64,000 bases of DNA from Clostridia bacterium (GTDB taxonomy: Bacteria; Bacillota; Clostridia; Oscillospirales; CAG-382), in assembly GCA_017399965.1 (NCBI GenBank), contig JAFQAP010000003.1, positions 40,028 through 104,027 on the forward strand. The letters are read 5' to 3'. Both the position numbers and the translations under genes were made by a program. Of this stretch, positions 3,227 through 52,552 are shown piece by piece (position 1 is the stretch's first letter; each line of letters begins with the position of its first letter). The notes under the pieces were generated by a model. It was not told where the DNA came from. It saw only the letters and a list, made by a program, of their open reading frames with translations, and made no database searches.

Positions 3227-3230
3227 CAAT

Positions 3231-3397: not shown

Positions 3398-3441
3398 AAC
3401 ATTACTCGGGTTCGAAACCGTATTGCAAAACGCAAAAAATC

Positions 3442-4860: not shown

Positions 4861-4892
4861 GGTAAAATTGGATTTGAAAGGCGGTGTTTTCT

Positions 4893-15560: not shown

Positions 15561-15610
15561 ATAAACACTCCTTTCTAATTACGGTTTGTCCACAGGGCAA
15601 GACCGAAAAC

Positions 15611-16246: not shown

Positions 16247-16294
16247 ACATATTCACCTCTCTAATTACGGTCATCCCATCGGGTAGGATTGAGC

Positions 16295-17466: not shown

Positions 17467-17700
17467 ATGATGAATGAGGAAACACCGTCTGTAGCAGTAA
17501 AATCTAAAGGACGCGGAGCATTTGGATGCAGAAGCCTTTTTCGCGAGCGGGGAGCTGTAGTAACCTACTGCCTCCCGAGCGAAAATGGCTACAAAAACGC
17601 AAATAAAATAAAATTTTGAAGACGATTTTCGTCGGAAAAATTTTCACCTATTTTCTGTAATTAAAGCGGCGGAGGCAAGCCATCCGCCCTACAAACGGAA
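17467..17700 (-). repeat. Family-B composite repeat, inverted orientation, preceded by ATGATGAATGAGG words
   Basis: Reverse complement aligns with 39060-39300. Carries the GGCGGA...TCCGCC variant of the tgtaGGGCGG hairpin, plus GACGA-ttt-TCGTC. Confidence 0.85.
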
Positions 17701-17788
17701 GATAACTGCACGAAAATATTTATATGTTTTTGCGTTTTTGGTTCTGCGCCGAATGAACGCGTACATACAAAGAAAGGAAATTAATAAT

Positions 17789-23124: not shown

Positions 23125-23244
23125 TTGATGAATGAGAAATGATGAATGTTGAATGATGAAAGATGAATGATGAATGATGGTTGATTTTTGTTCTGCGAAC
23201 AAAAATCTTCCGAAATTTCTCATTCCTCGTTCCTCATTCCTCAT
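23125..23244. repeat. Family-A island
   Basis: In order: ATGAATG/AATGAGA heptads, GATTTTTG-TTCtgcGAA-CAAAAATC (23183-23207), then CATTCCT heptads that end directly against the glyQS stop (23245-23247). Confidence 0.85.
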
Positions 23245-27004: not shown

Positions 27005-27426
27005 AAAAAATACCAATGGGAGCGCGTTCATTCGGCGCAGAACTAAAAACGCAAAAATTATAAATAGTTCTGTTTAGCGAATCTCCACAATGTAGGGCGG
27101 GGGTTTACTCCCGCCGCTCTAATAACACATTAATAGGTAAAAAATTTTCCGACGAAAATCGTCTTTAAAATTTTATTTTATTTGCGTTTTTATAGAAGCT
27201 TTTACTTCGCTAGCTGTAGATTACTACAGCACGCTCGTAAAAGACTTCTTCTGCATCCAAATGCTCCGCGTCCTTCAGATTTTGAGAACTACAGCCGGTA
27301 GATTTCGAAGAAATTAATCAATAGTTTTTTGCATTTTTGCAAAAAACTTACCGAAATTTCTCATTCCCGGGGTTCCCCGAAAACGCTATGCGTTTTTGGG
27401 GTGGGTTCCTCATTCCTCATTCATCA
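27005..27426 (+). repeat. Family-B composite repeat (27013-27325) followed by a family-A island (27325-27426), inside the ABC cluster
   Basis: Aligns with 39005-39310. Followed by TTTTTTGCA-ttt-TGCAAAAAA, the CCCC..GGGG hairpin (27375-27401) and CATTCCT/CATTCAT heptads that abut the stop at 27427. Confidence 0.85.
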
Positions 27427-31828: not shown

Positions 31829-31903
31829 TGGTGACCCGTAGGGGAGTCGAACCCCTGCCTTCGCCGTGAGAGGGCGACGTCTTGACCACTTGACTAACAG
31901 GCC
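31829..31903 (-). tRNA. tRNA-Glu (anticodon CUC), CCA encoded
   Basis: The - strand reads GGCCTGTTAGTCAAGTGGTCAAGACGTCGCCCTCTCACGGCGAAGGCAGGGGTTCGACTCCCCTACGGGTCACCA, close to Firmicute tRNA-Glu. Anticodon loop CT-CTC-AC. An upstream TTGACA-17-TAATAT promoter lies at about 31910-31945. Confidence 0.85.
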
Positions 31904-31980: not shown

Positions 31981-33111
31981 ATGCTTCCTAAGGAACCGTA
32001 TAAAAAAATACTTGTTGCCGCAGCGTACGTGCTTATCGGCGCGGCGCTTGCTTTCGTGTTTGTAAAATATCTGGCAGGGGTATTGCTTCCCTTTATTATC
32101 GCATACGTACTTGCCGTGCTTTTACATCCTTTGGTAAATCTGGTTTGTAAAAAAACAAAAATTCCCCGTATAATAACCGTAATACTCACGGTCGTAGTCA
32201 CTGTGGGAGTTGTGGGCGTATTGCTTTATCTGGTCGTCCACCGCGTTTACAACGAAATCACCTCCCTTTACCAGACCGTAAGCAATATACTTACGGAAAT
32301 GAAAAACAACCCCGATTACGCTGTAGAGATAATAGATACGATAAACGGCTACGTTCCTTTTGTGGATTTCCGCGAACAGCTTATGGAGATATGGGAGAAT
32401 ATCGACGTATACGTAACCACGTTTGCAACCACTCTGGTGACCGACCTTAACGGCATTATTATCCCTGCCATAAACGCTATAATGAACACCGTGCCTCCCG
32501 TGCTTGTGGGCACCATAATCACCATAGTTGCTTTCTATTATTTTCTTGCCCAGTATCACCGGATAAACAATGCGGTGGTAAGCGTGTTCCCCAAAGTGGT
32601 GGGCGAGCATCTTGTGGCTATTAAAAGACAGCTTGTAAGCGCCGTGTTTATGTTTATAAAGGCTTACGGCGTTATAATGATGATAACCTTTATGGAAGCC
32701 TTTGTGGGATTCACCATCCTGGGTGTAGAGTATGCGTTCTTGATGGCTGTTCTCACCGCCGTAGTTGATATTATGCCTATTCTTGGCACAGGTGCCGTGG
32801 TTATTCCCTGGGGCGTATTCGAGATCATACGCGGTAATTATTTTATCGGTATCGGTCTTTTGGTGCTGTATGCCATCATCACCGTGGTGCGCCAGTTCCT
32901 TGAGCCCAAGATCGTGGGAAAGAGCGTGGGTCTTCACCCCCTGCTTGCGCTGGTATCAATGTACGTCGGCTTAAAATTATTGGGCGTTGTGGGACTTTTC
33001 GGGTTCCCCATAGCTTTGGTTATCTACAACAGATTGCGCGAAGAAGGATTTTTCAAATTCAAGCCCCATCCTTCTGAGCCCGCACAGGAAACAGCAAATA
33101 CGGACAAATAA
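31981..33111 (+). CDS. ytvI: AI-2E/PerM family membrane protein, YtvI-like (sporulation integral membrane protein)
   Basis: 376 aa with a polytopic membrane profile. The C-terminal motifs PILGTGAVVIPW and EPKIVGKSVGLHPL are typical of AI-2E/YtvI. Confidence 0.55.
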   Translation: MLPKEPYKKILVAAAYVLIGAALAFVFVKYLAGVLLPFIIAYVLAVLLHPLVNLVCKKTKIPRIITVILTVVVTVGVVGVLLYLVVHRVYNEITSLYQTVSNILTEMKNNPDYAVEIIDTINGYVPFVDFREQLMEIWENIDVYVTTFATTLVTDLNGIIIPAINAIMNTVPPVLVGTIITIVAFYYFLAQYHRINNAVVSVFPKVVGEHLVAIKRQLVSAVFMFIKAYGVIMMITFMEAFVGFTILGVEYAFLMAVLTAVVDIMPILGTGAVVIPWGVFEIIRGNYFIGIGLLVLYAIITVVRQFLEPKIVGKSVGLHPLLALVSMYVGLKLLGVVGLFGFPIALVIYNRLREEGFFKFKPHPSEPAQETANTDK

Positions 33112-33151
33112 TTGCCCGCAAATATAAAAACGAAATATAAGGAGAAAAAAC

Positions 33152-34474
33152 ATGAAAAAGTTTATTTCCGTAAGTCTGGTGCTTATGCTGGTTCTCACAA
33201 GCCTGCTTGTTATCAGCACCTCCGCCGCAGAGGCTGACAGTATAGTTCATTCTCTGCTTCCCGCCGAAGACGATACAAACGGCAAGGTTACGGTTAACAA
33301 CTGCGAGTACACCTGCAATGCAGACGGCTCTGTTACCTTTACCGTTACCGGCGCAGGCGCAAGCGTTAATGTTGTATATGCAGAAGGCGCTACCGTTTGG
33401 GCAGGCGATGCGTTTAACGTAAGAGAAGGCGCATACGTTGTATTCGATTACGGCTCTGCAGACGGCGCAACTCTCGGTCAGTCCACTCAGGCTCACTACA
33501 CCCGTAAGGATAAAGAAGCAAACGGCACTGTAGCAGACCTCTGGCTTACCTCCATGCAGACTATGACCAATTATCAGAAGGCATCCGGCGATGGATACGG
33601 CATCTGGTCTTTGGGCGATTACCTTGTAACCGAAAAGGGCGATGCAGGCATTTTCGAGGATAATATGCACCGCTTTACCTCTCTTGAGCTTTACATAGAA
33701 GGTCCCGTAGGTTCTTCCGTAACCGTATACCGCTTCTACGTTGGTACCGCAGACGCTGTTGAAGGTCTGGGCTCCGTACGTCCCGAAGCAAAGGAACCCG
33801 AAGTAAGCGAACCCGAAGAAAGCGAACCCGCAGTAGAGGTTGAAATTCCCGAAGGCGCGATCAACCTGGGCAGAGTTCCCGTTAACACCAGCATCAGTAC
33901 CGGCTCTACCACCGTTGTTTCCGACCCTGCAATTATGCACAATTATAACGTAAAGTGGACCTCCTGCGCACTGCTCAGACCCACCGAAAACGAAAACGAA
34001 TATTCCGTTGTTGCTACCAAGTGGCTTGACGGCGTTGATACCTTCCTCTTTGAGGAAGCTAAAGAAGGCGATATCGTTCTTTCCGTTCACGGTGACGATA
34101 CCGTTGCAGGCTCTCAGGCAAACAAAGATGCTCTTACCGCACTTCCCGCAGGAAGCATTGTTACCCTTATCGGTTATGATTTTGAAAAGCTTACCGCCGC
34201 AGACGATGCAGTAGTATTCTTTGTTCCCGGCACCGCAGGCACCGATGAATCCGAACCCGAAGCAAGCGAAGAGCCCTCCGAAGAACCCTCCGAAGAGCCC
34301 TCCAAGGATGAGTCTGCTCCCGTTGCAAACAACTCCGAAGATGAATCTACCCCCGCCTCCGGCGAAGAGACCAATGTTATCGGCACCGGTCTTATTATCG
34401 GTATAGTTGCAGGCGTAGTTGCAGTTGCTGTAATAGTAGTTGTAGTTATCGTTGTCGTTAAAAAGAAGAAATAA
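33152..34474 (+). CDS. Secreted hypothetical protein with an acidic Pro/Glu linker and a C-terminal TM anchor
   Basis: 440 aa. Signal peptide MKKFISVSLVLMLVLTSLLVISTSAAEA, AAGGAG RBS, SEPEASEEPSEEPSEEPS linker and a C-terminal hydrophobic helix plus KKKK. The 508-aa antisense ORF was rejected. Confidence 0.7.
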   Translation: MKKFISVSLVLMLVLTSLLVISTSAAEADSIVHSLLPAEDDTNGKVTVNNCEYTCNADGSVTFTVTGAGASVNVVYAEGATVWAGDAFNVREGAYVVFDYGSADGATLGQSTQAHYTRKDKEANGTVADLWLTSMQTMTNYQKASGDGYGIWSLGDYLVTEKGDAGIFEDNMHRFTSLELYIEGPVGSSVTVYRFYVGTADAVEGLGSVRPEAKEPEVSEPEESEPAVEVEIPEGAINLGRVPVNTSISTGSTTVVSDPAIMHNYNVKWTSCALLRPTENENEYSVVATKWLDGVDTFLFEEAKEGDIVLSVHGDDTVAGSQANKDALTALPAGSIVTLIGYDFEKLTAADDAVVFFVPGTAGTDESEPEASEEPSEEPSEEPSKDESAPVANNSEDESTPASGEETNVIGTGLIIGIVAGVVAVAVIVVVVIVVVKKKK

Positions 34475-34484
34475 CAAATAACAT

Positions 34485-34514
34485 AAAAAGCTCCGAGTGA
34501 TCGGAGCTTTTTTA
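34485..34514 (+). terminator. Rho-independent terminator
   Basis: AAAAAGCTCCGA-gtga-TCGGAGCTTTTT followed by a T-run. Confidence 0.8.
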
Positions 34515-34516
34515 TT

Positions 34517-34667
34517 AGTGAAGAGAGACGAGAGAAAAGAGAAGAGAAACGGAAGATTTTTGCAAAGCGTTGCAAAAATCAACATTCATTCCTCATTCCT
34601 CATTCCTCATTCCCGGGGTTCCCCGAAAACGCCATGCGTTTTTGGGGTGGGTTCCTCATTCCTCATT
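34517..34667 (+). repeat. Family-A island
   Basis: In order: a GA-rich arm, GATTTTTG-CAAagcgTTG-CAAAAATC (34555-34580), CATTCCT heptads, the CCCC..GGGG hairpin with a CAT loop (34621-34647), then CCTCATT. The stop of the - strand gene (34663-34665) lies in the last heptad. Confidence 0.85.
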
Positions 34668-35415
34668 TGCTTTTCTTCTTATCCATAAAATACCATGGTA
34701 GATATGCGAGCACAAACAGCGTGGTCACCGCCGCCATCATCACGGCGAAGCGGAGCGCGAAATTGGGAGGAAGGATATCGAGTATCGAGGGGGTATCCTC
34801 GGGGCGCGCCATAAACAGATAGTTTGCGCCGGGGCCTATAATACGGTTTGCCGCAAAGGCAACGGCGGTAAGCACTCCCAACAGCCCGTAGGCTTTAAAA
34901 GCGCCTTTTACCGTGGGGCGCATCTTATGTACGAACACCATATAGAATACGGAAACGTAACCCAGCGTGTGCTCCAGCCAGAACTGGTAGTATCTGAAGC
35001 GGGTGGGACCGGTAAACGAAATTACCGTGGGAGTTATGAGAGCGAATACAGACCCTGCAAACAGCCAGAAATATACTATATCAAAAAGGCTTTGGCTTTT
35101 GCCGATAACCATAAAGCTGCAAAAAACGACCGCCCAGCCGCACACGGTGATGGGGAGATGGTCCACGGGGTTGGGATCCAGCGAAGGAATGCCCACAAGC
35201 CGCCAGTAATAGGACATTTCGGAAATTATAAGCATAAACGCAAGGGTATAGCGGAATGCTTTTTCATGCTTGCACGCCTGTATTTTATCCTTAAACCGCC
35301 ATATAAGCAAAATTACTCCCACGGCGATAAGTATGGGAAGAAAATGGGCAAGAGAAAAGTTTGCAAATTCCTCTGTTTCCCCTTTTCCGAAAAAGTAATT
35401 AAAAAATTCCTTCAT
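34663..35415 (-). CDS. Integral membrane protein, TIGR02206/YwaF-like
   Basis: 250 aa with about 7 TM helices. The N-terminus FSLAHFLPILIAVGVILLIW resembles the YwaF family. GGAGGA RBS. Confidence 0.5.
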   Translation of the reverse strand: MKEFFNYFFGKGETEEFANFSLAHFLPILIAVGVILLIWRFKDKIQACKHEKAFRYTLAFMLIISEMSYYWRLVGIPSLDPNPVDHLPITVCGWAVVFCSFMVIGKSQSLFDIVYFWLFAGSVFALITPTVISFTGPTRFRYYQFWLEHTLGYVSVFYMVFVHKMRPTVKGAFKAYGLLGVLTAVAFAANRIIGPGANYLFMARPEDTPSILDILPPNFALRFAVMMAAVTTLFVLAYLPWYFMDKKKSK

Positions 35416-35485
35416 ATTCAGGCTTCCTCCACCGTTTATATATAAACTATATCACATACAAAGGGGAAAAGCAATATTTTGTTGA

Positions 35486-35606
35486 AAATGAGGAACCCGT
35501 TTCGGGAGAGAAGAGATAAGAGAGAAAAGAGAAAAGATTTTTGCAAAGCGTTGCAAAAATCAACCATCATTCCTCATTCATCATTCCTCATTCATCATTC
35601 CTCATT
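35486..35606 (+). repeat. Family-A island (same hairpin core as 34555-34580)
   Basis: In order: an AATGAGG word, a GA-rich arm, GATTTTTG-CAAagcgTTG-CAAAAATC (35536-35561), then CATTCCT/CATTCAT heptads abutting the stop at 35606-35608. Confidence 0.85.
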
Positions 35607-36037
35607 TATCTTTTCTTTGCCGCTTTCTTTATTATATCCGCTTTTGTCTGCTTTTTTCCTGCGGCGATGTATCCTCCCAGCAAAGGGGCAAGCGCCGCCG
35701 CAAGGGGAGGGAGCACACGGGCGAGCAGGTTTTCGCTTTCGGGGAAAAAGGCGCATAATACCCCCAGCAAAACAAGGGTAGTCACTGCGGCGTAAACTCC
35801 GCTTATTAATGCGCCCCCCAGCTTTACCGCCAAAAATCCCCCTGCCATACCGCCCAAACCTATGGCTATACACGCTGCGGTAAGGATATGGGAAGCGGGG
35901 TCTGCACTTCCCGCAAACGCCGCCGCAAGACACAGCATTAACAAAACAGATACAAAGGGCACGGCAACACCGCCGATAAGTCCGCCCAACAGAGGGTTTA
36001 AGGTGAGTTTATTTTCTTTTTTCATCTTTGCGCACAT
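35606..36037 (-). CDS. Small Gly-rich membrane protein (TIGR04086/YrzE-like)
   Basis: 143 aa (or 139 aa from MKKENK at 36025). Three to four Gly/Ala-rich TM helices. Confidence 0.4.
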   Translation of the reverse strand: MCAKMKKENKLTLNPLLGGLIGGVAVPFVSVLLMLCLAAAFAGSADPASHILTAACIAIGLGGMAGGFLAVKLGGALISGVYAAVTTLVLLGVLCAFFPESENLLARVLPPLAAALAPLLGGYIAAGKKQTKADIIKKAAKKR

Positions 36038-36074
36038 CTCCTTTTTTAATATAGATATGCGCGCACTCTTTTAA

Positions 36075-36995
36075 TTATTCCGTAAGCCCCCGCAAAAGAG
36101 AAGAGTATTCTCCGTAAAGCGCGGTAAAATCCATAGCGGAAGAATATATTTTTTCCAAATCTCTGTGGTATTCCGCCGCTTCCCTAAAGGCTTTCCGCGC
36201 CAAAGCATATGCCTGCGACGCCGCTTCAAGCCCTTCGGGGTCTCCGTTTTCTCTTTCTGCGGAAATATAAATATTTTTTCCGTGGAAATACACACCGTTA
36301 AAGCGGTCGCTGTGAGTCGGGTGGGGGGAAAGCGTCATCCTCTCGTTTTGCTTTGTGCCCAAAAGAACGATCTCCTCAAGCACATCCTCCTCTACACATA
36401 CCGTGCTTTCCGCTTGGGGAAATGCGTTGCACAGCACGGTTCCTTTTCCCGTAAATGCGGCGGAAACACGGTAATCCGCCGTGCCCTTTAAGGATGATAA
36501 AATGCGGGCATTAAAAAGCTCCTCCGCTTTTTCCCCGCCTTTTTGCATAATTTTACCTGCCCGTTCCGCCGATACGGCGGAGCTTATATATCCGTACCCC
36601 CGTTTATAGCACTCCGATTTTTTGCGGGAAAGTGAAATTATCCCCTCTCTGTCAAGCTTTTTTGTGTCTATAAACCTGCCCGTATCAAAAAGTATCTCCT
36701 TTGCCAAGGGGTATTTCGGCTCCAGCACGTGGGGGGAAGTGCCGTCCGCAATACCTGTTTTTAACTCAGGCAGATATATTCCGTCAAGGGATGCGGGGTC
36801 GGAAGAGCAGAGTATCCGCCACACCTGGTACCCCAAGTTTTCGCAATCGGATGCAAGTTTTTTCATCAAAGTGGATTTTCCGCTTCCCGGCGTGCCTTTA
36901 ATAATATACAGCCGCTTCGCATCGGAAAAATATCTCTCCAGATACCCGATAAATCCTTTCTCCGTGTTTACTCCCGCAAAAAATTCTGTGTTCAT
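36075..36995 (-). CDS. Uncharacterised P-loop NTPase (PRK06851-like family)
   Basis: 306 aa with FFAGVNTEKGF, Walker A IIKGTPGSGKSTLMKK and CSSDPASLDGIYLPELKTGIADGTSPHVLEP. GGGAGGAA RBS. Confidence 0.6.
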   Translation of the reverse strand: MNTEFFAGVNTEKGFIGYLERYFSDAKRLYIIKGTPGSGKSTLMKKLASDCENLGYQVWRILCSSDPASLDGIYLPELKTGIADGTSPHVLEPKYPLAKEILFDTGRFIDTKKLDREGIISLSRKKSECYKRGYGYISSAVSAERAGKIMQKGGEKAEELFNARILSSLKGTADYRVSAAFTGKGTVLCNAFPQAESTVCVEEDVLEEIVLLGTKQNERMTLSPHPTHSDRFNGVYFHGKNIYISAERENGDPEGLEAASQAYALARKAFREAAEYHRDLEKIYSSAMDFTALYGEYSSLLRGLTE

Positions 36996-37079
36996 ATATT
37001 CCTCCCGTGGTTGACATTATTAAAAACCCGTTATATACTGTTATTAATAATATGTTTCTGAAAGGTAGTTTGCCAAAAA

Positions 37080-37811
37080 ATGAAAGCTTTAATACTTGCA
37101 GGCGGTAAAGGAAAACGTCTGGGCAGCGATATAACCCATATTCCCAAGGTAATGCGCAAGGCTTTGGGCAAGCCTCTGCTGGGCTACGTGCTGGAATATA
37201 CGGATTTTATCCCCGAAAAAGATAAGGTCATTCTGGTCGGCTACGAAAAACAGGCGGTTATGGATGCGTTCCCCTCATATTCCTTCGCCGTTCAGGAGGA
37301 GCAAAAGGGCACGGGCCACGCGGTTATGTGCGCCGCACCGCATTTTGAGGGATACGACGGGGATATTCTTGTCATAAACGGAGATATGCCCTTGCTTAAA
37401 AGAGAAAGCGTGCTTGCTCTTTTGGATCACCACAAGGAAACGGGTGCGGATTGTACCATACTCACCTTCGTGGCAAAGGGTAATATCCCTCCCTTCGGGC
37501 ATATAATACGTACCGTTTCCGGTTCCGTGGCGGGAATTGTGGAGCACAAGGACGCAAGCGATACTCAAAAGCTCATTCCCGAACTTAACGGCGGTATATA
37601 TATGTTTGACAGCAAAAAGCTGTTCTCCGTCCTTTCCCGCATAACTCCCAGCCCCGTAACGGGTGAATATTATCTTACCGATGTGCCCAAGCTTATGCTC
37701 GCCGAAGGATATAAGGTGGAGGGCTTTATCCTCCCCGATGAAACCGAGCTGGCGGGAGTAAATACGGAAGAGGATCTGAGAGAAGTAGAAAGAATATTAG
37801 GCGCTCGGTAA
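37080..37811 (+). CDS. Sugar-phosphate nucleotidyltransferase (GlmU N-terminal-domain-like)
   Basis: 243 aa with MKALILAGGKGKRL, QEEQKGTGHAV and VINGDMPL. A TTGACA-17-TATACT promoter lies at 37012-37039. Confidence 0.75.
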   Translation: MKALILAGGKGKRLGSDITHIPKVMRKALGKPLLGYVLEYTDFIPEKDKVILVGYEKQAVMDAFPSYSFAVQEEQKGTGHAVMCAAPHFEGYDGDILVINGDMPLLKRESVLALLDHHKETGADCTILTFVAKGNIPPFGHIIRTVSGSVAGIVEHKDASDTQKLIPELNGGIYMFDSKKLFSVLSRITPSPVTGEYYLTDVPKLMLAEGYKVEGFILPDETELAGVNTEEDLREVERILGAR

Positions 37812-38195
37812 AACACTGTAGATCGAAACGCAACGTGTTTAGAAGTTTTACTGCAGCAATTTCCCAAATGTAGGGCGGGTGGCTTGCCCCCGCCGTACCA
37901 TTTACCAAATAAGGTAAAAATTCCGTAGAAAAATCTACGGAATTTTCTTTTTTATTGCGTTTCTACGCATTTTCGCTTCGCTGGCTGTAGAATACTACAG
38001 CTCCCGCTTGCGAAAAAGCGTTCTACAGCGTTTTACCATCGCTTTCGCTCGGTTTTCTGCAGACATTACGTATCAAAAACAATTACACGGTTTTTTGCAC
38101 CGCAAAAAACTACCGAAGTTTCTTGTTTCTCGTTTCTCGTTCCTCGTTGCGGGGTCCCCAAAAATGCGGATGCATTTTTCGGGGTGCCCCTTGCT
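37812..38195 (+). repeat. Family-B composite repeat (37812-38070) followed by a family-A-type island (38070-38195)
   Basis: Contains tgtaGGGCGGG...CCCGCC, CCGTAGA-aaaa-TCTACGG and GCTGTAGaatACTACAGC. Followed by TTTTTTGC-acc-GCAAAAAA, GTTTCTC/GTTCCTC heptads and the CCCC-AAAAATGC..GCATTTTT-GGGG variant (38156-38184). Confidence 0.85.
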
Positions 38196-38265
38196 CCCGC
38201 CGCGAACTGTTTGCGCCAAATTACCGTCTTTTGCGTTTATTCTTTGTTTATACTTGCTGCACAAA

Positions 38266-38299
38266 CAATTCTCCCCGAGTGTTCGGGGAGAATATTTTT
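38266..38299 (+). terminator. Rho-independent terminator upstream of the OLE promoter
   Basis: ATTCTCCCCGA-gtgt-TCGGGGAGAAT stem followed by ATTTTT. Confidence 0.75.
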
Positions 38300-38341
38300 G
38301 CATTTGTTGAATAAAAACATGCATAAAAACCAAAAAACCCC

Positions 38342-38369
38342 TTGAATTTATGCAAAACTGTGTTATAAT
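38342..38369 (+). promoter_or_regulatory. Promoter of the large ncRNA
   Basis: TTGAAT (38342-38347), 16-nt spacer, TGtTATAAT (38361-38369). Confidence 0.55.
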
Positions 38370-38375
38370 GAATAG

Positions 38376-38995
38376 GCGATGGCGCAGTATTCTAGTTAGC
38401 GCGGCGTTTTTGAAGGCGTGCCTAAAAATACGTCAAACGGCAGATCGATGAAGCTCCTGGTGTTTGCTTTGTACGCCCAGTTCAGGGTGGATGCTGGGAG
38501 AGTGGACTGTGGGCGCACCCCAACGGCATGGGGCGGCTAACCCACTTTCCTTTGAGGCTTTTTCTTCGTGGCGGACCTTAACACATGGAAAAGGGGGCTA
38601 CGGGATTAAGATTAAACCTATCACGCGGTACGACCATTACAGATGCTGTGGATAGATGTAGCCGGCTTTGAGTGGGTCATGGCGGATAACGTTCATGTCG
38701 GGATGAGATTAGCTACCGAACCTCGAATAAATCGCGTTTGAAATCATGCCTGCAAAAGAAGATAAGAAAACGTTTTGCGCTATGGCGGAAAACGCCTAGA
38801 CTGTTATCGTGGCAGATAAACACGTATGGGCACGGTGCGGATTACAGTGCGGACTCATAGGCAATCAAGTCGCGGAACCGGTAACGCTCCGCCTCGGTCT
38901 TTAATGGGGAACCCCTTCATCGGCGACGAGAAGGAGACCGCGGGGAAATCCTACTTGACCGTAAGCCGCAAGGTCTACGTACCGTGCCGCCATTA
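38376..38995 (+). ncRNA. ole: OLE (ornate, large, extremophilic) RNA candidate
   Basis: About 620 nt with no credible ORF and no repeat-family content. It is richer in G+C than the surrounding spacers and has many local helices. It has its own promoter and lies upstream of a 4-TM oapA-like gene followed by dxs-tlyA-nadK-argR-recN, which is the classic OLE synteny. The ends are approximate. Confidence 0.65.
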
Positions 38996-38996
38996 T

Positions 38997-39310
38997 TCAA
39001 AAAGCCATTGGGAGCGCGTTCATTCGGCGCAGAACCAAAAACGCAAAAAATAATATATAGTTCTGTTTAGTTATTTTCCGAATGTAGGGCGGGTGGCTTG
39101 CCCCCGCCGTTTTAATAGTAGATTATAAGGTAAAAATTTTTCCGACGAAAATCGTCTACAAAATTTTATTTTATTTGCGTTTTTGTAGCCGTTTTCGCTC
39201 GGGAGGCAGTAGATTACTACAGCTCCCCGCTCGCGAAAAAGGCTTCTGCTTCCAAATGCTCCGCGCCCTTCAGACTTTTTGTTCTACAGCCATTACATAT
39301 CAAAAACACT
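38997..39310 (+). repeat. Family-B composite repeat between OLE and oapA
   Basis: Aligns nearly end to end with 27013-27325. Confidence 0.85.
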
Positions 39311-39332
39311 TATTTAAATTTTAGGATATAAA

Positions 39333-39899
39333 ATGAAAAACATTAAAGAAAAATCCAAACGCCGTGCGCGGCGGATATGGATCACCTTTGCATTTATATT
39401 CAGCTTTTTTATGACCGCCCTCCTCTCCCTTATGTCGGGCGAGGCGTTGGAGGATCTTCCCGTTTGGGCAGCGCTGGCGGTGCTGCTTATCTTTATTTTG
39501 CTGGGCATTGTGTTCGATATGATCGGACTTGCGGTCACCACGGCGGATATTTCCGCTTTTAACGCAATGGCGGCAAAAAAAGACCCCGTGGGAAAGCGGG
39601 CTGTATGGCTTATCGCCAATGCGGAAAAGGTGTCCTCCTTTTGCAACGATATAGTGGGTGATATTTGCGGTGTCGTTTCCGGTGCTTCGGCGGCTTCCAT
39701 TGCGGTGGTGCTGTTTTCCCGGCTTGATTACGAGCTGTCGTTTTGGCTTACGCTGTCTCTCACGGCGCTGGTTTCCTCCATCACTGTGGGAGGAAAGGCG
39801 CTGGGCAAGCGTATAGGTATGGATAAAAGCAGGGAAATAACCCTTTTTGTTGCAAAGGTGCTTTGCATATTCACAAAAAAAGAGAGAAAGAAACAGTAA
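39333..39899 (+). CDS. oapA: OLE-associated membrane protein OapA-like (4 TM helices)
   Basis: 188 aa with a basic N-terminus, four predicted TM helices and DIVGD in TM3. Located between the ncRNA and dxs. Confidence 0.6.
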   Translation: MKNIKEKSKRRARRIWITFAFIFSFFMTALLSLMSGEALEDLPVWAALAVLLIFILLGIVFDMIGLAVTTADISAFNAMAAKKDPVGKRAVWLIANAEKVSSFCNDIVGDICGVVSGASAASIAVVLFSRLDYELSFWLTLSLTALVSSITVGGKALGKRIGMDKSREITLFVAKVLCIFTKKERKKQ

Positions 39900-39900
39900 A

Positions 39901-41730
39901 ATGATACTTGAAACGGTTTTTTCACCGGCAGACGTAAAAAAACTGCCCCCCGAACAATTAAAGATACTGGCGGCGGAGATCCGTTCCGAGCTTATTAACG
40001 TAACTGCGGCAAACGGCGGGCATCTTGCCTCCAATCTGGGTGCGGTAGAGCTTACTATCGCCCTTCACCGTGTTTTCGATTGCCCCGAGGACAGGATCAT
40101 TTTTGACGTAAGCCACCAGAGCTACGTTCACAAAATGCTTACGGGCAGACGGCAGTTTATGCATACTCTCCGCAAATACGGAGGACTTTCCGGCTTCCAG
40201 AAACGGTCGGAGAGCAAAGCCGACCCCTTCGGCTCCGGTCACTCTTCCACCTCTATCTCTGCGGCGGCAGGCTTTGCGGCGGCAGATAAGATCGCAGGAA
40301 GAAAAAATATTACCGTTGCCGTTATAGGCGACGGAGCCTTAACGGGCGGTATGGCTTACGAAGCGTTAAACAACTGCGCTTTGTACGATAATATGGTAAT
40401 TATTCTTAACGATAACGGGATGTCCATATCTCCCAACGTGGGAGCCACATCCAAGCTCCTTTCCCGTATCCGTGTAAGTAAAAAATATTTCGGCTTCAAG
40501 CGGTTTGTTTACAAAGCCTTTATGGCTGTACCCGGTATCGGCAAAGGCTTGGTAAATATGGCTGTCGGCTTTAAAAACTGGGCAAAGCGCCATCTTGTTC
40601 ACGAAAATCTTTTCGAGCAAATGGGAATGCACTATTTCGGCCCTCTTGACGGACACAATATCTCCGCTATGGAGGACGTGCTGCGCGAAGCCAGGGAGGA
40701 CGGAAAATGCTCTGTTGTCCACGTTTGCACCAAAAAGGGCAACGGATACGCCCCTTCAGAGAAAAATCCCGCATTTTTCCACGGCGTTTCGGGGTTTGAC
40801 AGAGAGACGGGCACGGTTAAAGAGGGCGGAAAAAGCTATTCAAGCGTGTTCGGGGATACTCTTACACGCCTCGCATATATGGACAAGCGTATATGCGCAG
40901 TCACCGCCGCGATGGAATACGGCACGGGACTTGCACCCTTTGCAAAAGCCTTTCCGGAAAGATTTTTTGACGTGGGCATAGCCGAAGAACACGCAATGAC
41001 CTTTTCCGCAGGTCTGGCGGCAGGGGGAATGAAGCCTGTTTTTGCGGTTTATTCCACCTTTTCACAAAGAGCGTACGACCAGCTTATACACGACGTAGCC
41101 CTGCAAAACCTTCCCGTTGTCATAGCGCTTGACAGAGCGGGCATCGTAGGGTCGGACGGACCTACCCACCACGGTATGTTCGATATGGCGTACCTTAATT
41201 CCATCCCCAACGTAACGGTATGGTCCCCTTATACCGAAACCGAATTAAAGGTGTGCTTAAAGCGGGCGCTGGATCTTGATTCTCCTTCCGTGGTGCGCTA
41301 CCCCAGAGGAAACGTGCCCGAGGGAAAATCCGTTTCCGATATAGATTATGCCGTAACGGATTTCGGACAGAGCGAATTTATATACACTGTCCTCATAACT
41401 ACGGGCAGTGAAACGGCAGAGGCGTACCGCGCTTGCGAGATCGCCCACGCCAACGGAACAAACGTCCGTCTTATCCGTCTTATTCGGGTAAAGCCTTTGC
41501 CCGATATTACCCACCTTATTAAAAACGCCCGTGTTATCGTAACGGCGGAGGAGGGTATGAAAAAAGGCGGCTTGGGTGAAAGTATTGCCGCTATGTGTGC
41601 GCAAAAACAGCTCCGTGCCCGTGTTACCGTGTGCGGTGCGGATGACTTCCTGCCCCACGGAGATACGGATGTGCTCCGCTCCATAGCGGGGATAGATTCC
41701 ACCTCCCTTGCACAGAAATTATGCGAATAG
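39901..41730 (+). CDS. dxs: 1-deoxy-D-xylulose-5-phosphate synthase
   Basis: 609 aa from MILETVFSPADVKKL (ATG 2 nt after the oapA stop). Contains GHLASNLG, the ThDP motif GDGALTGGMAYEALNN, and DRAG(I)VG.DGPTHHG. Confidence 0.95.
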   Translation: MILETVFSPADVKKLPPEQLKILAAEIRSELINVTAANGGHLASNLGAVELTIALHRVFDCPEDRIIFDVSHQSYVHKMLTGRRQFMHTLRKYGGLSGFQKRSESKADPFGSGHSSTSISAAAGFAAADKIAGRKNITVAVIGDGALTGGMAYEALNNCALYDNMVIILNDNGMSISPNVGATSKLLSRIRVSKKYFGFKRFVYKAFMAVPGIGKGLVNMAVGFKNWAKRHLVHENLFEQMGMHYFGPLDGHNISAMEDVLREAREDGKCSVVHVCTKKGNGYAPSEKNPAFFHGVSGFDRETGTVKEGGKSYSSVFGDTLTRLAYMDKRICAVTAAMEYGTGLAPFAKAFPERFFDVGIAEEHAMTFSAGLAAGGMKPVFAVYSTFSQRAYDQLIHDVALQNLPVVIALDRAGIVGSDGPTHHGMFDMAYLNSIPNVTVWSPYTETELKVCLKRALDLDSPSVVRYPRGNVPEGKSVSDIDYAVTDFGQSEFIYTVLITTGSETAEAYRACEIAHANGTNVRLIRLIRVKPLPDITHLIKNARVIVTAEEGMKKGGLGESIAAMCAQKQLRARVTVCGADDFLPHGDTDVLRSIAGIDSTSLAQKLCE

Positions 41731-42449
41731 ACCTTTATTTAGTGGAAAAGGGCTTGGCGCCCAGCCGCAGTAAAGCAAAAGAATATATAGATTCCGGCAG
41801 AGTTTTTTTAAACGGTGCACCCGTTAAAAAAGCGGGTGCGGAGGTTACGGGATGTGAGGAAATTAAGGTTTCCGACCCGGATAAATTCGTGTCCCGCGCA
41901 GGCAGAAAATTAGAAGCCGCTTTGGATATCTTCGGTATCGACGTTACCGGCTTGACCGCTCTTGACCTTGGTGCGTCCACAGGGGGATTTACAGATTGCC
42001 TCCTGCAGAGAGGGGCGTGCCGTGTTATCGCTCTGGACGTGGGAAGAGATCAGCTTGATGAACGTCTGCGGAAAGACACACGTGTTTTTGTAATGGAAAA
42101 CACAAACGCACGGGATATTCACCCCGAGCACCTGCCCTTTTTACCGGATATCGTTACCACAGACCTTTCTTTTATTTCCCAGACTCTTGTTTATCCCGCA
42201 GTTGCGCGGGTGCTTGAAAAGGGGTACTTTATATCCCTTGTAAAGCCCCAGTTTGAAGCGGGGAGAGAGAATATCGGCAAGGGCGGTATCGTAAAGGACA
42301 AAGACGGAAAGATAAAAGAAGCGGTGTTTGAAAAAATAAAAAACGAAGCGTTAAAAAACGGATTTTCTTTAATAAAAACCGCCCCTTCACCCATAGTGGG
42401 AGGGGACGGAAACACAGAATATCTGGCACTTTTTGAAAGGAGTGTTTAA
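41721..42449 (+). CDS. tlyA: TlyA family rRNA 2'-O-methyltransferase
   Basis: 242 aa. S4-like N-terminus (RIDLYLVEKGLAPSRSKAKEYI) and an FtsJ-type SAM motif DLGASTGGFTD. Confidence 0.85.
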   Translation: MRIDLYLVEKGLAPSRSKAKEYIDSGRVFLNGAPVKKAGAEVTGCEEIKVSDPDKFVSRAGRKLEAALDIFGIDVTGLTALDLGASTGGFTDCLLQRGACRVIALDVGRDQLDERLRKDTRVFVMENTNARDIHPEHLPFLPDIVTTDLSFISQTLVYPAVARVLEKGYFISLVKPQFEAGRENIGKGGIVKDKDGKIKEAVFEKIKNEALKNGFSLIKTAPSPIVGGDGNTEYLALFERSV

Positions 42450-43238
42450 ATGAAACGGGTTCAGCTCCTTGTAAATACGTTAAAGCCGGAAGCCCAGTAT
42501 ACCGCCATGAAGGCGGGGGACGTTCTGGCGCAATGCGGTATGACGGTTACCGAAAAAAATCCCGAAGCCATTATTTCTATCGGCGGGGACGGAACCGTGC
42601 TCCGTGCCGCGTCCATCGCCGCAAGAGCCGATATTCCCATTGTGGGCATAAACTGCGGCACGCTGGGATATCTGAACGATATCGAAGCGGACGAAACCGA
42701 GCTTTTGCGGAAATTAAAGACCGATGATTACACCGTGGATGAGCTTATGCTCCTTGCCGTCACCCTTCACAGAAAGGACGGAAGCCAGGAAGAATTTTTG
42801 GTGCTTAACGAGGTGCTGTTCTCCCGCGGGGCATCTCCCCGTATAGCAGACATACATTTGTATTCCGACGGTGTTCACGTTTCCGATTATTCGGCAGACG
42901 GGCTCATCTTTTCCACCCCTACGGGAAGCACGGCATATTCCCTTTCCGCAGGAGGACCTATTATACATCCCAGCCTTGAATCCATTACCGTTACTCCCGT
43001 TTGCCCCCATCCCACCGCATCTACAAGAGCAATAGTTTTCCCCGCCGACAGTATGCTTATGGTGGCGGCAGAGGTAAGAGGCGGCGAAAATGCCTGCATT
43101 ACCGTGGATTCCGCACCTCCCGTGGCGTTTTGTGCGGGAGATTACGCAGTCATCCGCAAGAGCGAGCGGCATACAAAAATAGCCCGTATCAAGAACCGAA
43201 ACTTCTATTCGGTCGTCCATAAAAAATTCAACGTTTGA
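42450..43238 (+). CDS. nadK: NAD kinase
   Basis: 262 aa with the motifs GGDGTVLRA, NCGTLGYL and STPTGSTAYSLSAGGPI. Confidence 0.9.
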   Translation: MKRVQLLVNTLKPEAQYTAMKAGDVLAQCGMTVTEKNPEAIISIGGDGTVLRAASIAARADIPIVGINCGTLGYLNDIEADETELLRKLKTDDYTVDELMLLAVTLHRKDGSQEEFLVLNEVLFSRGASPRIADIHLYSDGVHVSDYSADGLIFSTPTGSTAYSLSAGGPIIHPSLESITVTPVCPHPTASTRAIVFPADSMLMVAAEVRGGENACITVDSAPPVAFCAGDYAVIRKSERHTKIARIKNRNFYSVVHKKFNV

Positions 43239-43253: not shown

Positions 43254-43712
43254 ATGAAGATAAAAAGACAAACAAAAATAATGGAGCTTATAAAAACTCG
43301 GGACGTAGACACCCAAGAGGAGCTGTTGTTGCTGCTTCGCGCTGCCGGATTTGAATGTACCCAAGCCACCGTATCCAGAGATATACGTGAGCTTAAAATA
43401 GTAAAGGCTTCCAACGGAAAGGGCGGATACCGCTACGTTTCCGCAACCCTGCCCACCTCCGAGCATATTGCCACCAAGTTTGCAAAAATACTTGCAGACA
43501 CGGTAAAGAGCGTGGATCAGGCAATGAATCTGGTGGTGCTCCGCACCTATATGGCAATGGCATCTGCCGCCTGCATCACTATAGACGCTATGAATTTCGA
43601 AGGAATTCTGGGCTCTATCGCAGGGGACGATACCATAGTTTTAATTACCAAAAACGAGGAAGATGCCCACCGTATCTGCGTAAAATTAAAGGAACAGATC
43701 GGCGCGGCGTAA
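43254..43712 (+). CDS. argR: Arginine repressor
   Basis: 152 aa. Winged-helix N-terminus (QEELLLLLRAAGFECTQATVSRDIREL) and C-terminal GSIAGDDTI. Confidence 0.9.
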   Translation: MKIKRQTKIMELIKTRDVDTQEELLLLLRAAGFECTQATVSRDIRELKIVKASNGKGGYRYVSATLPTSEHIATKFAKILADTVKSVDQAMNLVVLRTYMAMASAACITIDAMNFEGILGSIAGDDTIVLITKNEEDAHRICVKLKEQIGAA

Positions 43713-43721: not shown

Positions 43722-45386
43722 ATGCTTTTTTCACTACATATCCGCTGCGTTGCACTTATTAAGGAATTGGATATAGACCTTTCCGAAGGGCTTACCGTCT
43801 TTACGGGTGAAACGGGCGCAGGCAAAAGTATTATCATAGATTCAATAGCCCTGCTTTGCGGCGCACGGAGCGATAAAAGTATTATCCGCACCGGAGAAGA
43901 CAGCGCCGAGGTGGAGGGTGTTTTCGGTATGCTTTCTTCCGATGTGGTAAAGGCGCTGGAAAAAGAAGAGGTGTACCCCGATGAAGAGGGAAACCTGTTC
44001 CTTACCCGCCGTATCACCGCCGACGGCAGAAGTGTTTCCCGCATAAACGGCAGAGTTGTGCCCGTGGGCAAGCTCCGTGCCGTTTCAGCGTATCTTTTGG
44101 ATATTCACGGTCAGCAGGATACCACCCGTCTTGCAGACGAGAGCATACATCCCGCCCTTTTGGATCTGTATGCGGATAATAAGGCGGAAAAGGAAGAGTA
44201 TTTAAAAGCCTACCGCGTTTACACCGCTTTGCGCAAGGAAAAGCAGGCGCTTCTGGAGGATATGGAAAACACGGAGGAAAAGAAGGATTTTCTTTCCTAC
44301 CGTCTTAAAGAGCTCCGCCGCGCAAAGCTTAAAGCGGGGGAGGAAGAAGAGCTTACCGCAAAGCGGAATATGCTTGTAAACCGCGAAAAGATAGTGGTTT
44401 CCGCAAGAAACGCATATTATGCGCTGTATGAAAAAGACGAATCCGCCGCATATCTTATCTCGATGGCGGAAAACGCTCTCTCCGCCCTTTCGGATTATGC
44501 GGAGGAAGCAAAAGAGCTTTCCCAAAGGCTTGAAAGCGTGCGGTTGGAAATAGAAGATATTGCAGATACCGTGGTGTCTTATGCAGACGACCCCGAAGGC
44601 GACCCTCAGTCCGCTTTGGACAATATAGAAGCCCGCCTTTCTCTTATATCCTCTCTCCGACGTAAATACCGCACGGATGAATCGGGGCTTATTGCTCTGC
44701 TTGAAGAAACCGAAAACGAGCTTAACAGTATAGAAAACAGCGTCTTCCGTAAGGAGGATATAGAAAAAGAGCTTATTAAAGCGGAAAAAGAGGCTTCCGA
44801 AAAGGCATACGCCTTGTATACCACCCGCGCACGCGCCGCAAAGGAAATGGAAAAACAGATAAAGGATATCCTTTCCGCTCTGGATATGCCCGGAGTGACC
44901 TTTGTGACCGAGTTTGAAAAAACGCCTCTTTCCCCTTTGGGTACGGAAAAAGCAAGGTTTTTAATATCCGCCAACCCGGGAGAAGAGCCTCGTCCCGTGG
45001 CAAAAATAGCATCGGGCGGGGAATGTGCCCGTATAATGCTGGCGGTAAAGAGCGTCCTTGCAAACGCAGAGAATATCGGTACAATGATATTCGACGAGGT
45101 GGATACGGGTATTTCGGGCGCAACCAGCTCCCGTATCGGTATGCGTCTTAAGGCTCTGGCGGGAACGGACAAGCAGGTCATCTGCGTTACCCACTCCGCC
45201 CAGATAGCCGCTTTGGCAAAAAATCATTTACTCATTTCAAAAAGCGCATCCTTCGGCAGAACAGAGACCCACGTCCGCCCTCTTCACGGCGAAAGCCGCG
45301 TAAAAGAGGTGGCGCGTATTATGGGAGGCATAGAGCCCGGGGAAGAAATAATAAACGCAGCAAGAACAATGATAAAAAACCCGTGA
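43722..45386 (+). CDS. recN: DNA repair protein RecN
   Basis: 554 aa with Walker A TGETGAGKSIIIDS, coiled-coil middle, and C-terminal SGGECARIMLA and IFDEVDTGISG. Confidence 0.95.
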   Translation: MLFSLHIRCVALIKELDIDLSEGLTVFTGETGAGKSIIIDSIALLCGARSDKSIIRTGEDSAEVEGVFGMLSSDVVKALEKEEVYPDEEGNLFLTRRITADGRSVSRINGRVVPVGKLRAVSAYLLDIHGQQDTTRLADESIHPALLDLYADNKAEKEEYLKAYRVYTALRKEKQALLEDMENTEEKKDFLSYRLKELRRAKLKAGEEEELTAKRNMLVNREKIVVSARNAYYALYEKDESAAYLISMAENALSALSDYAEEAKELSQRLESVRLEIEDIADTVVSYADDPEGDPQSALDNIEARLSLISSLRRKYRTDESGLIALLEETENELNSIENSVFRKEDIEKELIKAEKEASEKAYALYTTRARAAKEMEKQIKDILSALDMPGVTFVTEFEKTPLSPLGTEKARFLISANPGEEPRPVAKIASGGECARIMLAVKSVLANAENIGTMIFDEVDTGISGATSSRIGMRLKALAGTDKQVICVTHSAQIAALAKNHLLISKSASFGRTETHVRPLHGESRVKEVARIMGGIEPGEEIINAARTMIKNP

Positions 45387-45404
45387 TACAATCACGGGTT
45401 TTTT
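45374..45404 (+). terminator. Rho-independent terminator overlapping the recN stop
   Basis: ACCCGTGA-tacaa-TCACGGGT stem followed by TTTTTT. Confidence 0.8.
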
Positions 45405-45528
45405 GAATGAGGAATGAGGAATGCGCCGCGTTGCTTCGCACCGCTAAATGAGGAATTTCGGAAGATTTTTGTTCGTTACGAACAAAAATCAACCATCATT
45501 TCTCATTCATCATTCATCATTCCTCATT
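45405..45528 (+). repeat. Family-A island
   Basis: In order: AATGAGG heptads, the aatgCGCCGC...GCTAAATGA module, GATTTTTG-TTCGttaCGAA-CAAAAATC (45464-45490), then CATTTCT/CATTCAT/CATTCCT heptads. Confidence 0.85.
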
Positions 45529-45559
45529 AAAAAATGCCGCCAAAAAGGCGGCGTTTTTT
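45529..45559. terminator. Bidirectional terminator hairpin
   Basis: AAAAAATGCCGCC-aaaaa-GGCGGCGTTTTTT. Confidence 0.75.
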
Positions 45560-48919: not shown

Positions 48920-48937
48920 AAGTTTTCTCCTTTATTT

Positions 48938-49070
48938 AATGAGGAATGATGAATGCGACGCGATGCAAAGCATCGCTAAATGATGAATGATGGAAACCTT
49001 TTTCACGCTTCGCGTGAAAAAGCTACCGAAATTCCTCATTCCTCATTCCTCATTCCTCATTTTCATCATT
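48938..49070. repeat. Family-A island
   Basis: In order: AATGAGG/AATGATG heptads, GCGATGC-aaa-GCATCGC, CTTTTTCACGC-ttc-GCGTGAAAAAG, then CATTCCT heptads. The pyrR stop (49066-49068) lies in the last word. Confidence 0.85.
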
Positions 49071-50610: not shown

Positions 50611-51009
50611 ATGGAAATAGCAATTATCGCCAACGATAAGAAAAAAGAGCTTATCACCGAATTCTGCATAGCATATTGCGGAGTGCTTGCCAAGCACAAC
50701 ATCTGTGCAACAGCTACGACAGGAAAATACATAAGCGAAGCAACGGGACTCAAAGTTACCCGTATGCTTGCAGGCTCTCACGGCGGAGCAGAGCAGATCG
50801 CTGCCCGTATAGCGTATAACGAGATCGACCTGGTTATCTTCCTGCGCGACCCCAATACGGATGCAGAGTATATAGATACCACGCTTCAGGTCATCCGTCT
50901 GTGCGATAGCCATAACATCCCCGTTGCAACCAATATCGCAACTGCGGAGGCGCTTATTCTGGCGCTCGGCAGAGGAGACCTTGATTGGAGAGAGATTCAG
51001 AGAAAATGA
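50611..51009 (+). CDS. mgsA: Methylglyoxal synthase
   Basis: 132 aa. Contains IAIIANDKKKEL, ATATTGKYI and GSHGGAEQIAA. The stop TGA lies inside the first AATGAGG word of the next island. Confidence 0.85.
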   Translation: MEIAIIANDKKKELITEFCIAYCGVLAKHNICATATTGKYISEATGLKVTRMLAGSHGGAEQIAARIAYNEIDLVIFLRDPNTDAEYIDTTLQVIRLCDSHNIPVATNIATAEALILALGRGDLDWREIQRK

Positions 51010-51105
51010 GGAATGATAAATGATAAATGATGAATGATGGTTGATTTTTGTTCGCAGAACAAAAATCTTCCGTAATTTCTCATTCCTCATTCCTCATTCA
51101 TCATT
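51004..51105 (-). repeat. Family-A island (inverted relative to 52389-52515)
   Basis: In order: AATGAGG/AATGATA/AATGATG heptads, ATGGTT, GATTTTTG-TTCgcaGAA-CAAAAATC (51043-51067), CTTCCG, then CATTCCT/CATTCAT heptads. Confidence 0.85.
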
Positions 51106-51128
51106 AATTTTTACGGAGTAAAAATTCT

Positions 51129-52388: not shown

Positions 52389-52515
52389 ATGAGGAATGAG
52401 GAATGCGACGCTCTTGCAAGCAAGAGCTAAATGAGGAATTTCGGAAGATTTTTGTTCGCAGAACAAAAATCAACCATCATTCATCATTCATCATTCATCA
52501 TTTCTCATTCCTAAT
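52389..52515 (+). repeat. Family-A island between hisS and aspS
   Basis: In order: AATGAGG heptads, GCTCTTGC-aa-GCAAGAGC, CGGAAG, GATTTTTG-TTCgcaGAA-CAAAAATC (52447-52471), AACCAT, then CATTCAT heptads. Confidence 0.85.
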
Positions 52516-52552
52516 TCTTCACTATACTTTGAAAGAAGGCAAAATTAAAACC

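Follow-up and report, generated by a model that had tools for sequence, protein, structure and literature searches.

A full-length OLE RNA gene directly upstream of oapA in an uncultured gut Eubacteriales bacterium

What is encoded by the region around positions 38342 to 38995 of the DNA analysed here, which carries no called gene and precedes a gene for a membrane protein of 188 amino acids (aa)? The DNA, 64,000 nt of contig JAFQAP010000003.1 from the Clostridia bacterium assembly GCA_017399965.1 (positions 40,028 to 104,027, forward strand), is referred to below as the window. A reading made from its letters alone (the sequence-only reading) had proposed OLE RNA, the ornate, large, extremophilic RNA of anaerobic Gram-positives, from size, lack of coding and gene order. 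We conclude that 38378-38994 (+) is almost certainly the full-length OLE RNA gene (ole) of an uncultured gut Eubacteriales bacterium, and that it probably functions as is typical of the family. Two intervals need to be told apart throughout.

38363-39009, plus strand: extent of the match to the Rfam OLE model, including a small number of unpaired bases on either flank, the first bases overlapping the -10 box of the promoter
38378-38994, plus strand: structured core of OLE, 617 nt, bounded by both strands of the closing helix

The OLE call was borne out by the covariance model. RF01071 (OLE RNA) matched 38363-39009 (+) with 386.5 bits, against an Rfam gathering score of 50 bits, over model positions 1-616 of 616 and without truncation. 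The E-value was 3.3e-111 in a 4-kb scan and 5.2e-110 for the whole window, and chance is therefore excluded as a source of the match. At the ends of the RNA, 38378-38383 (GAUGGC) pairs with 38989-38994 (GCCAUU), and this closing helix sets the structured core at 617 nt, close to the estimate of about 620 nt ending at 38995 made from the sequence alone. AU, GC, UA and CG pairs are all seen in the closing helix (columns 17-22 with 729-734 of the alignment described next).

To an alignment of the window RNA with 25 OLE RNAs from related loci (26 sequences) a consensus fold of 151 pairs was assigned, 105 of which show double-sided compensatory change. The covariation term of this fold was -31.9 kcal/mol, and the long-range closing helices are among the covarying pairs. 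Apart from a few distal mismatches, the window RNA forms the consensus pairs. About 150 columns are invariant and about 70 more are conserved at 90% or above. The conserved blocks GCAGUAUYCUAGU, CUAAAA, AUCGAUGAAG, GCCCA, GCUGGG, GGCAU and GUAGCC are all present in the window RNA, as are the further blocks UGCAAAA, GGAAA, CCUAG, GGAUU and GGGAAA. None of the dispersed repeat families of the window has a member inside 38363-39009, in agreement with the lack of repeat-island content noted earlier. Nothing contradicts the assignment to the OLE family.

Could the region instead encode one or two small proteins? Open reading frames (ORFs) do exist; from the promoter to 39333 the plus strand has just two of at least 50 codons, a 63-codon ORF starting with TTG (38464-38655) and a 75-codon ORF starting with ATG (38826-39053), the same pair that the sequence-only reading had dismissed as lacking a ribosome-binding site. 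Reading the bases by eye, we found no Shine-Dalgarno sequence before either. Neither ORF is kept in position or frame among the 25 homologous RNAs: the 63-codon ORF, with its TTG start, is cut to 47 codons in a sister species (L007) and absent elsewhere, and the 75-codon ORF extends out of OLE into a strain-variable repeat spacer. Substitutions in this region keep RNA pairs, not codons. We give the small-protein reading next to no credence; with unconserved ORFs and no sign of translation, the region appears to have no translated product, as had been supposed, and OLE RNA stays the preferred reading.

The gene that follows the RNA points in the same direction.

39333-39899, plus strand: oapA, encoding the 188-aa membrane protein with a DxxxD motif; AGGA lies 8 nt 5' of the ATG

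Its product gave a single Pfam match, PF01595 (CNNM), with 28.8 bits against a cut-off of 28.4, and no CBS or CorC domains. No NCBIfam model matched it, and in a sequence comparison with all chains of the PDB nothing was found, even at E up to 10. The DxxxD motif corresponds to D106-IVG-D110, in which D106, G109 and D110 do not vary among the 23 homologues aligned. The AlphaFold model (pLDDT 80.7) contains long helices at residues 2-40, 44-70, 97-128 and 133-164; Kyte-Doolittle analysis gave strongly hydrophobic cores for three stretches (about 14-36, 44-70 and 107-129), with a more amphipathic fourth helix. The six best fold matches in the PDB were all to the archaeal CNNM protein MtCorB (7m1t, 7m1u) and the CorC transmembrane domain (7cff, 7cfg), with probabilities of 0.93-1.0 and a TM-score of about 0.5. 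The published hallmarks of OapA are DxxxD, which is absent from CNNM domains, a distant CNNM similarity without CBS or CorC domains, a length near 190 aa with four transmembrane helices, and a CorB/CorC-like fold (Fernando & Breaker 2024, PMC11332333), and the top structure match of H. halodurans OapA was likewise CorB, 7M1U (PMC11332333).

Homologues of the 188-aa protein were numerous (2427 at E up to 0.001), mostly unnamed metagenome proteins; a few carried a label (Clostridia, Ruminococcaceae or Oscillospiraceae) or the erroneous name 'CBS domain containing-hemolysin-like'. When each GTDB species was represented by one genome, the scan yielded 80 loci, and in all 28 of those tested that had enough upstream DNA a full-length OLE (327-558 bits) stood directly 5' of the OapA homologue on the same strand. 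With the Mg2+ transporters of the CNNM/CorB/CorC/MpfA group the window protein shares the weak PF01595 (DUF21) match and the fold, closest to MtCorB (7m1t, 7m1u) and CorC (7cfg), as published for OapA of H. halodurans. It differs from them in lacking the CBS-pair and CorC_HlyC domains and in having the DxxxD motif, a fourth long helix and a constant pairing with OLE, and is therefore an OapA rather than an MpfA-type transporter. Judged by these features, the protein would behave as OapA, as the sequence-only reading had expected: it carries DxxxD, a weak PF01595 match, four long helices and a CorB/CorC fold, and OLE stands upstream in 28/28 loci. A separate Rfam candidate, sraL at 39352-39473 (-), antisense within oapA, scored 27.6 bits against 39 and was rejected as chance.

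Comparison with the sister species, whose OapA is 90% identical, allowed the RNA to be set against its neighbouring gene. While the OLE core was 94.3% identical, the oapA DNA was only 79.3% identical, and 82 of the 111 differences in oapA fell at third codon positions. The RNA is therefore more constrained than the synonymous sites of the adjoining gene, a pattern that indicates purifying selection on the OLE RNA.

The nearest genome records are metagenome-assembled and labelled Eubacteriales, Clostridia or Oscillospiraceae, many of them from guts of ruminants and other animals and several from yak, roe deer, goat or sheep; the Eubacteriales lie within the Clostridia, phylum Bacillota. Judged from L007, with its 90%-identical OapA, the host is probably an anaerobic member of the Bacillota from a ruminant gut. 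Elsewhere in the window, a protein encoded at 17738-18526 (+) has a type I dockerin domain at its C terminus, which suggests a cellulosome-type, fibre-degrading lifestyle and fits a ruminant gut.

Which of the elements known to act in OLE RNA are found here? The following were located.

38391-38396, plus strand: UCUAGU block with the CUAG palindrome, in P2; alignment columns C30, T31, A32, G33 and T34 invariant
38415-38434, plus strand: hairpin with the conserved loop CUAAAAAU (38422-38429); the stem covaries (columns 56-60 with 69-73)
38444-38453, plus strand: AUCGAUGAAG block, almost unchanged across the alignment
38710-38715, plus strand: terminal loop L9.3, UAGCUA with an AGCU core, self-complementary
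38872-38892, plus strand: P13 hairpin, with a lower stem of 5 bp, a single A bulging out at 38877 and the GNRA tetraloop GUAA (38881-38884)

The UCUAGU block pairs with CCUAG near 38807-38811 (columns 30-34 with 491-495). Mapping placed the sites bound by OapA at palindromes within or close to P2 and P4a (PMC12265935), and we take the CUAG in P2 to be the likely OapA-binding palindrome. A second candidate site for OapA is the palindrome AUCGAU (38444-38449), inside the AUCGAUGAAG block in the P4a region, its role being transferred from the same study (PMC12265935). The CUAAAA of the hairpin loop at 38415-38434 was present in 26/26 OLE sequences. In the OLE dimer the A-rich loop L4 forms the A-A intermolecular bridge B1 (PMC12286853), and we infer that this hairpin may be L4. 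Bases of J4a/5 build a k-turn at the base of P5 that is bound by OapC (PMC9723947, PMC12286853); the J4a/5 bases (AUCGAUGAAG) and the GCUGGGAG block are both there, forming a candidate k-turn recognised by sequence alone.

The symmetric kissing loop of OLE switches among the palindromes GGCC, GAUC and AGCU (Kretsch et al. 2025, PMC12286853). In our alignment L9.3 reads UAGCUA in the nine sequences of the window clade and GGCC in 13 others, and the UAGCUA loop of the window is predicted to be the AGCU variant of this kissing loop, bridge B3 of the predicted OLE homodimer. A further relative, L065 (OLE at 2270-2888), has GUCGAC in L9.3, outside the three palindromes quoted from that work. The distal P9.3 hairpin is missing in L019 (2264-2853) and L044 (2027-2624), and probably in L022 (1612-2236); these OLEs are still full-length matches at 355-375 bits.

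In H. halodurans OapB binds P13 and needs both the GNRA loop and the single-base bulge (PMC7936274). The P13 of the window has both; its upper stem contains a C-C mismatch (38878 with 38887), which leaves only 2 bp. Binding of OapB at this P13 would be plausible, not assured.

Some of these data weigh against a full-length OLE with family-type function. The 386 bits of the window RNA are fewer than the 440-558 bits of the more typical Clostridia OLEs compared. The C-C mismatch in P13 may make OapB binding weaker or altered, and could, though this is rather doubtful, mark a lineage with weakened or lost dependence on OapB. Furthermore, no KOW or L7Ae protein (oapB/oapC) and no bS21 was found in a Pfam scan of ten, mostly small, ORFs of the window obtained by greedy ORF calling; the scan returned SecG, GtrA, DUF1854, a dockerin protein, PRTase and ThiT-like proteins. 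The genes oapB and oapC are not normally linked to ole.

The lower score and the P13 mismatch, together with several non-canonical pairs in the cmscan alignment and mismatches in distal P7 and P9, could also be read as signs of a decaying, non-functional OLE relic. However, the lower score is common to the whole clade (355-402 bits), where it results from insertions in loops and a divergent distal P9 rather than from decay, and the highly conserved blocks are all intact. The identity to the sister species (94% for OLE against 79% for oapA DNA) likewise speaks against a relic, and compensatory changes are found even between the window and that species, e.g., from G-C to A-U at columns 616 and 621. 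The promoter and oapA are both intact, and no frameshifts or deletions were seen in OLE or oapA of L001-L004, further strains of the species. Decay is therefore an extremely unlikely explanation, and the RNA is better described as a conserved, full-length OLE.

How is this RNA transcribed? Two signals frame its 5' end.

38342-38369, plus strand: ole promoter, TTGAAT, a 16-nt spacer and the extended -10 box TGtTATAAT; 10/12 matches, TG present
38268-38293, plus strand: strong terminator-like hairpin with an 11-bp stem followed by AUUUUU; free energy (dG) -22.7 kcal/mol, z = -5.8

The promoter, already spotted by the sequence-only reading, was recovered in a promoter scan as the sole sigma-70-like site in 37800-40000. 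Its -10 box ends at 38369, placing the predicted transcription start at about 38376-38377, 1-2 bases before helix P1. The same -35/-10 arrangement directly 5' of OLE was found in L002-L004, in the sister species and in the majority of more distant relatives. The terminator-like hairpin stands between the upstream NTP-transferase gene and ole, and none of 200 shuffled sequences (0/200) folded as well. The locus L003, with identical oapA, has upstream genes (1-4980) wholly different from those at 34663-38340 of the window, namely peptidase U32, RadC and a GDSL lipase with dockerin; the breakpoint is immediately 5' of the ole promoter, in keeping with a transcription unit that starts at ole.

Downstream of oapA the gene order given by the sequence-only reading (188-aa protein, dxs, tlyA, nadK, argR, recN) was confirmed by Pfam and NCBIfam.

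39901-41730, plus strand: dxs (TIGR00204, 642.7 bits), starting 1 nt after the oapA stop
41721-42449, plus strand: tlyA-family rRNA 2'-O-methyltransferase gene (TIGR00478, 217 bits; S4 and FtsJ domains), overlapping dxs by 10 nt
42450-43238, plus strand: nadK (NAD kinase; Pfam/NCBIfam), beginning on the base after the tlyA stop
43254-43712, plus strand: argR (arginine repressor; Pfam/NCBIfam)
43722-45386, plus strand: recN (TIGR00634, 496 bits), last gene of the cluster

The cluster is compact: its gaps, from oapA onwards, measure 1, -10, 0, 15 and 9 nt, and recN is followed by repeats and a convergent gene. The adjacency of dxs to the OLE locus has been described (PMC10898510); in the literature searched we found no paper naming dxs and recN together with OLE.

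The spacer between ole and oapA varies among close relatives. It measures 323 nt in the window (39010-39332) and in L001. In L002-L004, contigs of different samples with an identical OapA, it measures 208 nt and contains a different, heptamer-and-hairpin class of repeat (L002 5665-5872, L003 5628-5835, L004 4349-4556), and in the sister species it is only 41 nt long, without a repeat (L007 1166-1206). The ole-oapA junction appears to be a recurrent insertion site. Neither the promoter scan nor reading by eye for a -35/-10 pair revealed a second promoter in the 323-nt spacer. The ole promoter most likely drives the whole operon from ole to recN, because it is the sole promoter common to the three spacer arrangements, nothing else resembling a promoter occurs between ole and oapA, and the gap in the sister species is only 41 nt. 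The H. halodurans cluster is transcribed as one polycistronic transcript (PMC12265935).

Within the spacer of the window the following were recognised.

39015-39322, plus strand: inserted copy of a dispersed intergenic repeat filling the ole-oapA spacer, outside OLE
39088-39108, plus strand: G+C-rich hairpin in the spacer repeat, followed by GUUUUAAU; dG -15.6 kcal/mol, z = -1.3

The repeat is an element of about 270-300 nt with at least three further occurrences in the window. It matches 17499-17761 (inverted) over 151 nt at 95% and 126 nt at 81% and 27053-27327 at 77% and 75%, and part of the same element lies at 37859-38005, upstream of ole. A G+C hairpin, GTAGGGCGGGTGGCTTGCCCCCGCC, and internal inverted repeats, CAAAAACGCAAAAAA with TTATTTGCGTTTTTG, are all conserved in it. 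Terminal inverted repeats, as in miniature inverted-repeat transposable elements (MITE), were sought in the spacer element, and only internal ones such as CAAAAACGCAAAAAA with TTATTTGCGTTTTTG were found. The hairpin at 39088-39108 was not significant against shuffled sequences; it recurs at 37870-37894 and at 17668-17692, where the stem carries a compensatory change from G-C to A-T. It may be a weak terminator-like site, which would at most attenuate read-through into oapA.

A second, very abundant class of repeats consists of runs of a 7-nt unit (TTCCTCA, TTCATCA or the complement) flanking hairpins (CAAAAATC...GATTTTTG and CGGGGTTCCCCGAAAACGC...GCGTTTTTGGGGTG). It occurs at no fewer than twelve intergenic sites, among them 8636-8784, 23131-23250, 27356-27421, 34525-34667 and 35506-35618, as well as 38090-38153, 45399-45533, 48931-49066, 51005-51110 and 52388-52528. 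These heptamer repeats create many spurious ORFs with 'HSSFLI' peptides, and one copy is found a short way 5' of the ole promoter region.

One might suppose that two unrelated repeats hit the ole-oapA junction independently within one species, and that the hairpin in the window, if it terminates transcription, altered the ratio of OLE to the OapA/operon mRNA. We regard this combined scenario as rather doubtful. If it were true and the hairpin terminated a useful share of transcripts, comparing these strains would show, as a natural experiment, what sets the stoichiometry of the OLE particle.

The arrangement of the operon bears on another question, namely whether the structured region acts solely in cis, as a 5' leader (riboswitch-like or an attenuator) of the oapA-dxs-recN operon, and not as a trans-acting, stable RNA. 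The operon lies on the same strand with no second promoter-like site before oapA, in the sister species OLE and oapA are only 41 nt apart, the hairpin that follows OLE would terminate weakly at best, and the polycistronic transcript of H. halodurans would also agree with a leader. Nevertheless, the family is known from experiment as a highly abundant RNA in a membrane ribonucleoprotein with OapA, OapB and OapC (PMC12265935, PMC9723947), and 617 nt with about 150 conserved pairs are far larger than any known leader. Moreover, the spacer ranges from 41 to 323 nt in the lineage and up to about 460 nt in relatives while OLE is undisturbed, which argues against an expression platform that depends on position. 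A function as leader only is very unlikely, and a trans-acting OLE RNA that heads its own operon remains the favoured reading.

Does this OLE differ from those already studied? As in full-length OLE of H. halodurans, RF01071 is matched end to end, with the blocks of P2, L4, the k-turn region, L5, L6, P12-P15 and the closing helix; oapA follows immediately 3', the neighbours include dxs, tlyA, nadK, argR and recN, and the host here is an anaerobic member of the Bacillota. A possible difference from H. halodurans is that ole of the window comes first in its transcription unit and has a promoter directly at P1, the H. halodurans cluster being described as one polycistronic transcript (PMC12265935). 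Genes such as xseA, xseB and ispA, presumably located upstream in the H. halodurans cluster, are missing from the window locus. The core of the window RNA is also slightly longer (617 nt), with insertions in terminal loops of the P7/P8 region and one variable hairpin; it has AGCU instead of GGCC in L9.3 and the C-C mismatch in P13, and a repeat of about 300 nt separates ole from oapA.

With the OLE homodimer of C. acetobutylicum, determined by cryo-electron microscopy (Kretsch et al. 2025, PMC12286853), the window RNA shares the sequence elements of the bridges, i.e., CUAAAAAU, a self-complementary L9.3 and conserved loops L5 and L6. Dimer formation by the window RNA is predicted from these elements, and its L9.3 is AGCU, one of the listed covarying alternatives. 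In 'variant 1' and 'variant 2' OLE of TANB77 and RF39 gut bacteria, P7, P8 and P9 are shortened or missing and the OapB site is often lost (PMC11332333). The variants, too, belong to uncultured gut Bacillota for which only metagenome-assembled genomes exist, but the window RNA retains P7, P8, P9 and a GNRA-capped, bulged P13. As all stems are kept and the RNA is longer than the consensus, it belongs to the full-length type and is not a variant.

By analogy with H. halodurans and C. acetobutylicum, the OLE RNA would fold and form a homodimer through the A-rich L4 and the self-complementary L9.3 (UAGCUA). The dimer may then dock through the CUAG and AUCGAU palindromes onto the CNNM-like, DxxxD-containing OapA, forming a ribonucleoprotein anchored in the membrane. 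Further partners would probably be OapB, at P13, and OapC, at the k-turn next to P5, and the particle could help the cell to cope with alcohols, cold, excess Mg2+ and poor carbon sources. Processing would free the RNA itself, or partial termination at the hairpin of the repeat (39088-39108) would enrich it. The functional roles assigned to the single elements are those reported in the OLE literature (PMC12265935, PMC11332333, PMC7936274, PMC9723947, PMC12286853).

Further features were noted elsewhere in the window. A thiamine pyrophosphate (TPP) riboswitch (RF00059; 60747-60845 (+), 54.8 bits against 54.3) lies upstream of a gene for a ThiT/YuaJ-type thiamine transporter at 60978-61523 (+), a borderline match to Gut-1 RNA (RF01706) was obtained at 5518-5588 (+) (51.4 bits against 50), and Rfam identified two tRNA genes, at 3120-3190 (+) and 31832-31903 (-), with 60.7 and 65.5 bits. 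At 14904-16735 (-) three tandem paralogues of 218, 211 and 146 aa share a signal-peptide-like N-terminal segment (MKLIKFTSILLC...AGCDTPEESKAD), resemble lipoproteins and explain the direct-repeat families D3 and D13. Two ORFs on opposite strands, 33152-34474 (+, 440 aa) and 33059-34585 (-, 508 aa), overlap almost completely. The plus-strand ORF is the gene called in the public contig (L001), and the minus-strand ORF is probably an artefact.

The OLE described here is an ordinary full-length member of a known family, which any Rfam-based annotation would label. Its peculiarities are minor: a promoter of its own at P1, the AGCU kissing loop, the mismatch in P13 and strain-variable repeat insertions between ole and oapA. 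It adds little that is new and confirms the arrangement of full-length OLE, oapA and the genes from dxs to recN in uncultured Eubacteriales, providing another lineage with an AGCU kissing loop and a spacer between ole and oapA that tolerates the insertion of repeats. Its practical value lies in annotation, as a 650-nt stretch without a called gene is to be labelled ole and not searched for ORFs. OLE is among the largest and best conserved bacterial non-coding RNAs without a known biochemical function, and each well-defined member adds comparative data.

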